This document shows, piece after piece, positions 1-1,053 of a DNA stretch of 1,053 nucleotides. The position numbers were made by a program, and so were the translations under genes. The notes beneath the pieces were generated by a model. That model made no database searches and was not told the DNA's origin. It worked only from the letters and a program-made list of their open reading frames with translations. Every line of letters begins with the position of its first letter. The stretch's first letter is position 1. This stretch comes from Escherichia coli. GTDB taxonomy: Bacteria > Pseudomonadota > Gammaproteobacteria > Enterobacterales > Enterobacteriaceae. The stretch lies in the NCBI RefSeq assembly GCF_003334385.1, contig NZ_QOWN01000131.1; one strand, 5' to 3'.

Positions 1-96
1 AAATCGCGTCAGTACAGTAAACGCGCTGGTGGCGGTGAATACCTGTCTTTCAGCTTGCTGGCTTTTTCGACAAGAGTTATTGGTGTGTCACGTTAA
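1..96 (+). CDS. Possible 3' end of an upstream CDS (partial, function unknown)
   Basis: Frame 1 is open from the window edge to TAA at 94-96 and reads KSRQYSKRAGGGEYLSFSLLAFSTRVIGVSR*. The first ~18 codons use typical enterobacterial preferred codons (cgt, cgc, ggt, ggc, gaa, ctg). A stop at 96 leaves a 19-nt gap containing the SD for the next gene, which fits tight phage-style packing. The alternative is frame 3, which stops at TAA 18-20. The fragment is too short to discriminate or to assign a function. Confidence 0.3.
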   Translation, partial: KSRQYSKRAGGGEYLSFSLLAFSTRVIGVSR

Positions 97-115: not shown

Positions 116-313
116 ATGCTGAAACAGCAGGATATGACCGAAACCGCCAGAGTGGTGTTTAATGAATTAAGTGCCACCGAACCGGCGACAGTCGGGGAGA
201 TTGCGCAGAATACTTACCTTTCACGTGAACGCTGCCAGTTAATACTGACCCAGCTTGTTATGGCGGGGCTGGCAGACTATCAGTTCGGTTGTTACAGACG
301 CCTTCAGTCCTGA
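116..313 (+). CDS. Small hypothetical protein (65 aa), winged-helix/HTH-like putative DNA-binding protein
   Basis: ATG 116 is preceded by AAGGGA with 7-nt spacing, and the stop is TGA 311-313. Translation: MLKQQDMTETARVVFNELSATEPATVGEIAQNTYLSRERCQLILTQLVMAGLADYQFGCYRRLQS. The pattern is helix (ARVVFNELS), then TVGEIAQNT, a turn, and an amphipathic helix (SRERCQLILTQLVMAGL). That is typical of small stand-alone winged-helix proteins. The track's GTG 29 start would add a Cys/Trp-rich, non-protein-like 29 aa with no SD. This frame is stop-free back to the window edge, so an upstream start cannot be formally excluded. A terminator follows immediately downstream. Confidence 0.7.
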   Translation: MLKQQDMTETARVVFNELSATEPATVGEIAQNTYLSRERCQLILTQLVMAGLADYQFGCYRRLQS

Positions 314-327
314 AGGCTTTTTTATTT
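300..327 (+). terminator. Rho-independent (intrinsic) terminator overlapping the stop codon of the 116-313 ORF
   Basis: GCCTTCA (300-306) pairs perfectly with TGAAGGC (311-317), giving a 7-bp stem around the 4-nt loop GTCC (307-310). It is followed directly by TTTTTTATTT (318-327). There is no matching A-tract upstream, so it is unidirectional for + strand transcription. Confidence 0.85.
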
Positions 328-340
328 GTGGTAAATGGGC

Positions 341-371
341 GGCTGGTGGGTGTTAGGGGCACTCACCAGCC
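341..371 (+). repeat. Strong inverted repeat / stem-loop in the intergenic leader (function unknown)
   Basis: GGCTGGTGGGTG (341-352) pairs with CACTCACCAGCC (360-371). That gives 12 bp (11 Watson-Crick plus one G-U at 349/363) around the 7-nt loop TTAGGGG (353-359). No U-tract follows on the + strand (ATCTGCTCATG), so it is not a canonical intrinsic terminator. Confidence 0.6.
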
Positions 372-412
372 ATCTGCTCATGCGTCCGGATCACAAGCAA
401 ACCTCAGGCCCA

Positions 413-431
413 CTGCTTTGCGCAAAAGCAG
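413..431. promoter_or_regulatory. Near-perfect palindrome; candidate operator or RNA hairpin upstream of the methyltransferase start
   Basis: The sequence is CTGCTTTGCGCAAAAGCAG. The core TTTGCGCAAA (417-426) is a perfect 10-bp palindrome, and the outer arms CTGC/GCAG match with one extra A. As RNA it forms a 7-bp stem (413-419 with 425-431) and the 5-nt loop GCGCA. It lies 33 nt upstream of ATG 464. Its regulatory role is inferred only. Confidence 0.35.
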
Positions 432-463
432 AATGAGCCTATCAGAGACAGGCTTAATGATCC

Positions 464-1053
464 ATGCTTAGTACTGTAAAAATATCCAGTTGTGAGTTAA
501 TCAACGCCGACTGCCTGGAATTTATCCGGTCGTTACCCGAAAATTCTGTTGACCTGATAGTCACGGACCCGCCGTACTTTAAAGTGAAGCCTGAGGGCTG
601 GGATAACCAGTGGAAGGGCGACGATGATTACCTGAAGTGGCTGGACCAGTGTCTTGCGCAGTTCTGGCGGGTGCTGAAACCTGCCGGAAGTCTTTACCTG
701 TTCTGTGGCCATCGCCTGGCGTCTGACATTGAAATCATGATGCGTGAACGCTTCAATGTGCTGAACCATATTATCTGGGCGAAGCCGTCCGGACGCTGGA
801 ACGGGTGCAACAAGGAAAGCCTGAGGGCATATTTCCCCGCCACAGAGCGCATTCTGTTCGCGGAACATTATCAGGGGCCGTATCGCCCGAAAGATGCCGG
901 GTATGAGGCGAAGGGCAGGGCACTGAAACAGCATGTGATGGCCCCGCTGATTTCTTACTTTCGTGATGCGCGTGCTGCCCTGGGGATAACGGCAAAACAG
1001 ATTGCTGATGCCACAGGAAAGAAAAACATGGTGTCGCACTGGTTCAGTGCCAG
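464..1053 (+). CDS. DNA methyltransferase, beta-class N6-adenine/N4-cytosine type (N6_N4_Mtase/PF01555-like), 5' partial; continues beyond the window
   Basis: I translated this by hand. ATG 464 is the first possible start because in-frame TGA sits at 458-460. The frame then stays stop-free for 196 codons to the window edge. Translation: MLSTVKISSCELINADCLEFIRSLPENSVDLIVTDPPYFKVKPEGWDNQWKGDDDYLKWLDQCLAQFWRVLKPAGSLYLFCGHRLASDIEIMMRERFNVLNHIIWAKPSGRWNGCNKESLRAYFPATERILFAEHYQGPYRPKDAGYEAKGRALKQHVMAPLISYFRDARAALGITAKQIADATGKKNMVSHWFSA. It has the N-terminal signature xDCLEfixsLPxNSVDLIvTDPPY, with catalytic motif IV DPPY at nt 566-577 (residues 35-38). That is followed by W..W....L..VLKPxGSLyxF, the canonical layout of beta-class amino-methyltransferases. 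Codon usage is typical of enterobacteria (ctg, ccg, gcg, cgc). The AdoMet motif (FxGxG) is expected downstream, outside the window. The SD is weak (CAGG 449-452, 11 nt from the ATG). Confidence 0.92.
   Translation, partial: MLSTVKISSCELINADCLEFIRSLPENSVDLIVTDPPYFKVKPEGWDNQWKGDDDYLKWLDQCLAQFWRVLKPAGSLYLFCGHRLASDIEIMMRERFNVLNHIIWAKPSGRWNGCNKESLRAYFPATERILFAEHYQGPYRPKDAGYEAKGRALKQHVMAPLISYFRDARAALGITAKQIADATGKKNMVSHWFSA

Follow-up and report, generated by a model that had tools for sequence, protein, structure and literature searches.

A conserved leader RNA with two predicted folds between an intrinsic terminator and an adenine methylase gene in the late operon of lambdoid prophages

Introduction

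How is a phage gene whose product is harmful to the cell kept off in the lysogen and then switched on? The question is acute for M.EcoGII-type enzymes, which methylate every adenine and whose silencing and activation have so far been unexplained. We have analysed a locus that raises it, a stretch of 1,053 nucleotides (nt) of Escherichia coli DNA (RefSeq assembly GCF_003334385.1, contig NZ_QOWN01000131.1; hereafter the window). Here a small open reading frame (ORF), an intrinsic terminator at 300-327 and a 136-nt spacer precede a beta-class N6-adenine DNA methyltransferase gene (hereafter the methylase). An earlier note made from the sequence alone had suggested that expression of the methylase depends on antitermination, on structure of the leader RNA or on both, with a small RNA (sRNA) encoded in the spacer as an alternative. 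Our analysis suggests, with high confidence, that the spacer holds a leader of about 130 nt (about 333-466) which is a conserved, cis-acting structured RNA of the plus strand. We further consider it somewhat likelier than an even chance that region 300-463 places two layers of control on a harmful late gene, namely a terminator overridden by the antiterminator Q and a two-state leader which occludes the start site.

The best phage match of the window is phage 1720a-02 (97%), whose methylase has been reported to be very similar to M.EcoGII (PMC5778455), and by this match the methylase of the window is assigned to the M.EcoGII family of non-specific adenine methylases. M.EcoGII itself modifies adenines without sequence specificity, is silent in the lysogen and does harm under constitutive expression (PMC5778455), and methylase homologues are also inactive in O111 lysogens (PMC6602927). 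The silence of M.EcoGII in lysogens, together with the harm done by its constitutive expression, provides a reason for tight control.

The leader is a widespread structured RNA

RNA spanning positions 295-475 is predicted to fold with a minimum free energy (MFE) of -74 kcal/mol, as compared to -55.1 +/- 4.4 kcal/mol for 200 dinucleotide shuffles (z = -4.34), none of which folded as well; the minus strand of the same segment gives z = -3.57. This folding strength, along with conservation and covariation of the first two hairpins in homologues, bears out the earlier view that the spacer is not random. All three hairpins proposed in the note (12 base pairs (bp) at 341-371, 7 bp at 413-431 and 7 bp between 434-440 and 450-456) were found at those positions.

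Positions 290-480 match 2,884 of 5,426 complete E. coli genomes, 2,136 of them at a coverage of 80% or more. A scan of species-representative genomes based on the methylase gave 80 loci, and in most of the Enterobacterales among these the same stretch of ~150 nt lies 5' of the ATG. Sixty-six distinct leaders were aligned with MAFFT by sequence only (alignment A2), and the covariance model built from A2 (R1) identifies 77 leaders among 98 sources. Diverged versions of the leader are among them, in Vibrio (four loci, E 1e-4 to 1e-7) and in Gilliamella (one locus, E 0.008). Scanning IMG/VR with a pattern detected the leader in at least 120 contigs. Among the matches listed, the methylase is present downstream in all 118 IMG/VR leaders with enough sequence, and its ATG lies 52-58 nt past the GCCCA motif of helix P1 (described below) in 118 of 118 loci.

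When the window was searched against the 4,227 families of Rfam 15 with E up to 10, the best match was P26 on the minus strand, with 16.6 bits against a threshold of 36 (E 1.3), and seven related loci gave no matches at the gathering threshold. A description of the leader was not found in the literature on StxS, prophage sRNAs, Pas sRNAs, the pR' region of Stx phages or M.EcoGII, and the leader is apparently undescribed so far.

The alternative of an independent sRNA or antisense RNA encoded in the spacer has some features in its favour, as both strands fold better than shuffles, a weak terminator-like site is present on the minus strand (454-436) and the late regions of prophages are a known source of sRNAs (PMC4104026). 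However, the scan of the whole window for sigma-70-like promoters found none on either strand (0.7 expected), in line with the absence of a promoter claimed in the note, and a plus-strand terminator between 328 and the methylase gene was not found either. Absence of an Rfam match and conserved complementarity to the start region also speak against it. The fixed spacing to the methylase ATG cannot be explained by a separate sRNA. We give this alternative next to no weight.

Two mutually exclusive predicted folds

In the MFE fold of the window the spacer does not form three separate hairpins. Instead, a long-range helix joins about 382-398 to 452-467 around the second hairpin, and in the window the occluding pairing also covers the AUG. 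Across the aligned leaders, the occluding helix (388-393 with 458-463 and 395-398 with 452-455) is 89.3% paired, as against at most 44% for controls in which the pairing was slid; it contains 37 cells changed on both sides (at most 17 in slid controls) and has a covariation score of 0.242 (at most 0.065). Two further helices belong to this occluded fold, which we call fold B. The first is an extension of H1 formed by 335-340 and GCUCAU 376-381 (94.7% paired, at most 52% when slid) and the second is an inner helix between GGCCCA 407-412 and UGAGCC 434-439 (93%, at most 49% when slid, with one covarying pair). In the helices of fold B the cells with G-U far outnumber those with A-C (72/16, 69/10 and 14/5), which points to the plus strand as the RNA. 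The RNAalifold consensus MFE structure is fold B, even on an alignment that was fitted to the competing fold.

The note had attributed concealment of the start region to the third stem, which would sequester a Shine-Dalgarno-like CAGG. The CAGG is indeed located at 449-452, with the methylase ATG (464-466) 137 nt after base 327, the last base of the terminator, and the stem shows weak conservation (74.5% of cells paired compared with at most 48% when slid, and little covariation). However, the CAGG is not conserved, and alignment A2 shows no conserved Shine-Dalgarno sequence 5' of the methylase AUG. The 3' half of the third stem, GCUU (452-455), consists of the same bases that pair with 395-398 in fold B, so that the two helices compete. 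Control by leader structure thus keeps its place in our interpretation, with the start region occluded in the conserved prediction by the long-range helix 388-398/452-463 and not by the third stem. We have moderate confidence in this occlusion, which comes from structure prediction.

The GATC at 459-462, which directly precedes the methylase ATG, hardly varies across Enterobacterales. Its conservation is explained by pairing with G(G/A)UCA at 389-393.

The other fold, fold A, is a three-way junction composed of P1 (UGGGC/GCCCA, 336-340/408-412), H1 and P3 (Table 1). RNAalifold recovers P1 and H1 on A2, where fold A has 13 pairs changed on both sides as compared to 4-7 in slid controls. On A3, the model-fitted alignment, 25 of 34 pairs and 156 cells are changed on both sides (at most 11 pairs and 43 cells when slid) and none of 500 shuffles reaches this level, figures to be read with the knowledge that related sequences inflate shuffle statistics and that A3 was fitted to the junction fold. 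Changes on both sides are seen in 8 of the 12 pairs of H1, the arms of which are fully compensated in Providencia, Proteus, Serratia, Vibrio and Gilliamella. Hairpin P4, present in both folds, has a both-side change somewhere in the family for all 7 of its pairs, and its U-G wobble fits the plus strand.

Hairpin P3 is the part of fold A that collides with fold B, because its bases 376-381 alternatively pair with 335-340 and its bases 388-398 with the nucleotides that immediately precede the start codon. Pair 375-399 varies among CG (24), UA (21), AU (10) and UG (5), and this covariation is specific to P3 since no helix of fold B explains it. In P3, the tandem mismatches occupy positions that pair in fold B or are immediate neighbours of such positions, a placement that a dual constraint would produce. 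The two folds are therefore predicted to be mutually exclusive, with covariation seen for helices of both. Judged by sequence, the leader thus appears to combine two hallmarks of riboswitch-like elements, a conserved covarying domain and a mutually exclusive expression platform.

Fold B is the more stable of the two in 51 of the 77 leaders, including that of the window (-63.5 kcal/mol for fold B and -51.2 kcal/mol for fold A), and the gap is within ~3 kcal/mol in many Enterobacter-type and Citrobacter-type leaders. These energies bear on the suggestion that the leader is a static damper, which stays mostly in fold B and sets a low constitutive level of translation or messenger RNA stability, while Q alone provides the on/off decision and fold A is a non-regulatory intermediate. 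Such a role would suit fold B, the consensus MFE structure, which thermodynamics and the prediction of co-transcriptional folding alike give for the window; our search turned up no trigger, and the lack of a conserved Shine-Dalgarno sequence fits a gene that is required in catalytic amounts only. However, the covariation specific to P3 (pair 375-399, with three Watson-Crick types) points to selection of a helix that cannot coexist with fold B, and near-equal energies of two folds, as found in many homologues, are typical of switches. We consider the static damper unlikely.

A further alternative places the switch in translation of a leader peptide. Ribosomes at AUG335, either initiating there or re-initiating after the small ORF, would melt the H1 extension, upon which P3 forms and the methylase start opens. 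AUG335 is nearly invariant and central to both alternative helices, the upstream ORF (uORF) that it begins spans 335-436 in the window, and the stop codon of the small ORF is only 22 nt 5' of it. In phiNP, read by eye, the uORF appears to overlap the methylase ATG as ATGA. Against this, the uORF ranges from 3 to 58 codons (most often 7), encodes no conserved peptide and has no Shine-Dalgarno sequence; AUG335 is paired in both folds, and base pairing fully accounts for its invariance. Coupling of this kind seems improbable to us. The ORF 335-436 was also considered as a small peptide in its own right and was rejected on its variable length and unconserved sequence.

Table 1. Positions of the features of the window discussed in the text.
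Feature	Positions	Strand	Description
Chi octamer GCTGGTGG, number 1	25-32	+	conserved block at module start; also in loci L001 and L002
Small ORF (65 amino acids)	116-313	+	phrog_331, a family without assigned function; weakly winged-helix-like
Intrinsic terminator	300-327	+	stem 300-306/311-317, loop 307-310, T6AT3 tail 318-327
AUGGGC	335-340	+	336-340 is the 5' strand of P1 (junction fold); 335-340 is the 5' strand of the H1 extension (occluded fold); start of uORF
H1	341-371	+	12 bp including one G-U, 7-nt loop; 5' arm holds Chi number 2
Chi octamer GCTGGTGG, number 2	342-349	+	5' arm of H1
P3 hairpin	373-401	+	373-382/392-401, tandem C-A/A-C mismatches
GGCCCA	407-412	+	408-412 is the 3' strand of P1; 407-412 pairs with 434-439 in the occluded fold
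P4	413-431	+	7 bp, 5-nt loop, present in both folds
Third stem of the earlier note	434-456	+	434-440/450-456, 7 bp including one G-U; inner GAGC/GCUU (435-438/452-455) reasonably conserved
Segment just 5' of methylase AUG	452-463	+	pairs with 388-398 in fold B; contains conserved GATC 459-462
Methylase gene, 5' part	464-1053	+	beta-class N6-adenine DNA methyltransferase, PF01555 (E 9e-44)

The terminator and the late operon

The element at 300-327 has a G+C-rich stem-loop directly 5' of a U-tract and is, by sequence, an intrinsic terminator. Its stem consists of 7 perfect pairs, 4 of them G-C, closed by a 4-nt loop; the free energy of the hairpin is -9.1 kcal/mol, and the site was called by the terminator scan. 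The perfect 7-bp stem and T6AT3 tract described in the note are thus canonical. The TGA stop codon of the small ORF (311-313) sits within the 3' arm of the terminator. A ribosome that ends translation of the small ORF could disturb the hairpin and modulate termination.

In Enterobacteriaceae a hairpin is commonly found at this position; it is missing from Providencia, Proteus and Morganella. The U-tract is strong in the E. coli Stx-type clade and some others, weaker in most Enterobacteriaceae (3-6 T of 9) and absent in Morganellaceae. The terminator hairpin was therefore rejected as a universal part of the RNA family. Among Stx2c phages the small ORF has diverged, no clear terminator follows it and the megablast match to the window starts at 333, which indicates that the leader travels with the methylase.

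A sequence search places the window in the late region of lambdoid phages. Identity over the whole window is 96-97% to Stx2a-converting phages and phage 1720a-02 and 89% to phiP27, while Stx2c phages are ~87% identical from base 333 onward only. Positions 290-480 are 100% identical to a prophage of E. coli EC2 (locus L098 carries this identical sequence). The gene order in these records is rusA, the Q antiterminator gene, the 65-residue ORF, the methylase, tRNAs, stx2AB or other cargo, and the lysis genes. Q is of the PF03589 type in the EC2 prophage and SfV and of the PF06530 type in phiP27. In L098 and L001, position 1 of the window is located ~110 nt past the end of the PF03589 Q gene, in the same orientation.

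The interval between Q and the window in L001 contains a strong tR'-like terminator, ACCCGTCGCCAGGCGGGT followed by T7 (L001 5970-5987), along with a promoter-like TTGATT-16 nt-TGgTAAATT which was read by eye and which the promoter scan did not call. This pair, adjacent to Q, would match the expected arrangement of pR' and tR' (PMC7547250). The same succession of Q, putative tR', small ORF, leader and methylase is found in Stx2a phages, phiP27, SfV, mEp460, Citrobacter phage phiNP, phages of Morganella and Providencia and the EC2 prophage. Downstream of the methylase, genes for a holin and an endolysin are present in SfV, mEp460, phiNP and the prophages at L013-L015, and in Stx2 phages the methylase is followed by stx2AB and then by the lysis genes, all co-oriented. 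On this evidence, the terminator at 300-327 would be the second strong terminator of the late transcript, ~330 nt beyond tR'. The antitermination suggested in the note fits the Q and tR' context. However, the note had invoked lambda N acting in the nin region, and the factor indicated here is Q acting at the late promoter.

In the SfV record a further rho-independent terminator is annotated between the methylase and the holin gene (L004 3692-3723), by which the methylase is bracketed by terminators within the late operon.

The small ORF precedes the leader in 55 of 77 genome loci and, among the matches listed, in 105 of 114 IMG/VR loci. Its protein gives a TrmB/MarR-like match at E 1e-3, below the Pfam cutoff, a zinc ribbon was not found in it and NCBIfam returned no match. 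A search of PDB sequences for a structure of M.EcoGII gave distant beta-class methylases only, and none of the annotated loci has a restriction endonuclease gene next to the methylase, as a restriction-modification unit of the C-protein type would have.

A proposed two-layer control of the methylase

Taken together, these observations suggest the following scheme. Unmodified RNA polymerase would mostly be halted at tR' and again at 300-327, and only Q-modified polymerase, in lytic growth, would pass both terminators; this read-through is expected from the context and from the established lambda model. Transcripts that get through would adopt fold B by default, so that the methylase start, which has no Shine-Dalgarno sequence, is hidden and translation is off. 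Formation of fold A (P1, H1 and P3) would tie up the occluding segment 388-398 and thereby free the start site. Candidates for the trigger are the neighbouring small winged-helix protein, a small ligand bound at the junction and ribosomes loading at AUG335. We infer the block to translation by fold B from predicted energies and conservation, and its relief would be regulated.

Several points weigh against this scheme. Termination at 300-327 is not a property of the whole family, as the U-tract is weak or absent in many homologues. The late promoter is a by-eye candidate which the promoter scan did not call. Support for fold A comes mainly from the lower part of P3. The two compensatory events in P1 (L025 and L083) are also explicable by fold B helices, A3 was fitted to fold A, and the relatedness of the sequences inflates the shuffle statistics. 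Prefix folding of the window never passes through the junction fold, and switching in the window therefore probably needs a factor. The small winged-helix ORF is ruled out as an obligatory partner, since it is missing upstream of 17-22 of the 77 intact leaders. Nor did prefix folding reveal a way for the window to reach the open fold during transcription.

With these points included, we still regard the two-layer scheme as having slightly the better of the odds. A more specific proposal is that the junction of P1, H1 and P3 is the sensor of a new ligand- or protein-responsive RNA switch, which would license translation of the promiscuous DNA/RNA adenine methylase only in a certain state of the cell during lytic growth, as a post-transcriptional lock on top of Q antitermination, and in which H1 would double as an active Chi site. 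This proposal is tentative, and we think it possible but doubtful. If it is true, ~40% of complete E. coli genomes, along with many Stx2 phages, harbour a riboregulator that has so far escaped notice, a few hundred bases 5' of stx2. The leader is in any case very common, occurring in E. coli, many Enterobacterales and Vibrio, and it is part of the stx2 late transcript in many Stx2 phages while being absent from Rfam. The two-layer lock of tandem terminators and an occluding leader offers a concrete mechanism that is open to testing.

Relation to known control systems

The late control of lambda by Q, pR' and tR' (6S RNA in lambda; StxS in Stx phages) is a close parallel of the first layer. As in that system, Q lies directly upstream and is followed by what appears to be a short terminated leader (PMC7547250); further intrinsic terminators would likewise yield to the Q-modified polymerase, and the methylase, tRNAs, stx and lysis genes are co-oriented downstream. 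In contrast to it, the terminator at 300-327 is not tR' itself, overlaps the stop codon of the small ORF and is strong in some clades only.

The second layer is reminiscent of com-mom of phage Mu, in which a harmful modification enzyme is made late, its start is locked in RNA structure and a small gene lies directly 5' (PMC3299994). Genes resembling com also lie upstream of the non-specific adenine methylases Hia5, Hin1523 and Nma1821. The window shares with this system the harmful modification enzyme, the predicted sequestration of the start site (388-398/452-463) and the small gene upstream. However, it has no Com; its upstream ORF is winged-helix-like, and the zinc ribbon PF10122 is present in Vibrio homologues only. 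The leader of the window is, moreover, far larger (~130 nt) and two-state, and the Vibrio leader precedes com and is not a target site of Com.

With translational riboswitches and other two-state leaders, the window has in common a covarying three-way junction, an exclusive helix that hides the start and, in many homologues, near-equal energies of the two folds. It differs in that the leader lies inside a long polycistronic late transcript and not at the 5' end, and in that no Rfam family is matched. Our modelling is thus consistent with a leader that acts on translation through two states, on top of Q control of the lambda type, and that serves the same end as com-mom of Mu.

Chi sites in and near the leader

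Two copies of the Chi octamer GCTGGTGG are present in the window (0.06 expected), both on the late sense strand. According to the strand rule for entry of RecBCD from the right end of cos (PMC12315714), both are in the active orientation; in phiP27, cos is located ~5.7 kb downstream. Chi is retained in 57 of the 77 leaders. In the other 20 it is lost, and the hairpin is kept through compensatory changes. Within Enterobacteriaceae the 5' arm of H1, which holds Chi, does not vary, whereas the 3' arm drifts via G-U pairs, which suggests an added constraint at the level of DNA. Phage LLS, which typifies the lambdoid phages whose Chi sites cluster at the right end (PMC12315714), also carries the leader. 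Like the right-end Chi clusters of this class of Rec-less lambdoid phages, the sites of the window lie on the late sense strand a few kb from cos; unlike them, the Chi in H1 doubles as the arm of a conserved RNA hairpin and is dispensable for the RNA family.

It could be argued from these data that the conserved element is DNA and the RNA folds are incidental, with Chi serving RecBCD protection or recombination and the palindrome at 413-431 serving as an operator for the small protein. The excess of actively oriented Chi, the unequal conservation of the two arms of H1, the right-end Chi clusters of the leader-carrying phage LLS (PMC12315714) and the helix-turn-helix-like (HTH) protein encoded by the adjoining gene would all agree with it. 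However, the hairpin is compensated in the 20 leaders that lack Chi, G-U pairs lie far above A-C, and the covariation extends across long-range helices, which no DNA-binding site explains. We judge this DNA-only explanation to be very improbable. Probably, Chi is a secondary function superimposed on the leader rather than its main explanation, and the 5' arm of H1 would then offer a natural case in which the same sequence acts in an RNA helix and as a Chi signal for recombination.

Some E. coli prophages have a leader that breaks off within H1 or directly after it. At L017 (2535-2700) the break is followed by an element of the IS3 family, and at L016 (2535-2700) the leader is broken at H1 and a gene with an HTH domain stands in place of the methylase. 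The Chi-bearing hairpin may be a recurrent breakpoint of recombination or insertion.

Vibrio relatives and neighbouring sequences

The leader in Vibrio (L078 1196-1500, L081 1210-1460, L082 and L094) is followed by a gene for a Com-like zinc ribbon (PF10122, E 1.7e-5) and then by the methylase. Homologues of the small ORF are detectable upstream of these leaders. Their P3 segment GUCAUAAG is complementary to CUUAUGAC, or to a shorter UAUGAC, spanning the AUG of the com-like gene. The logic of pairing between the P3 segment and the start of the next gene therefore seems to have been kept despite the different sequence. The junction between the com-like gene and the methylase in Vibrio (GAGUGCCAAGAGUGCC...GGAGGCGCAUUUG) has the appearance of a second hairpin at a start site, of the type known from Mu.

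The non-coding segment 1-115 of the window, 5' of the small ORF (CAGTACAGTAAACGCGCTGGTGG ... CTTGCTGGCTTTTTCGACAAGAGTTATTGGTGTGTCACG), is strongly conserved between Stx2a-type and Stx2c-type modules, while the small ORF itself diverges between them; the promoter scan called no promoter in this segment.

A different conserved element, GCCUUGAGUACCUGAGACC ... GGAGAGGAAGC, which in most loci is followed by a terminator-like hairpin and GUAUUCAAGGCUCU, lies 5' of methylase homologues in Vibrio, Psychromonas and Aliivibrio and has no match in Rfam. It is located at about 1290-1500 in L079, L084-L089, L092 and L095 and at about 1140-1195 in L078, L081 and L094, and it is diverged in L082. A LexA-box-like CTGT-N8-ACAG is often present 5' of this element.

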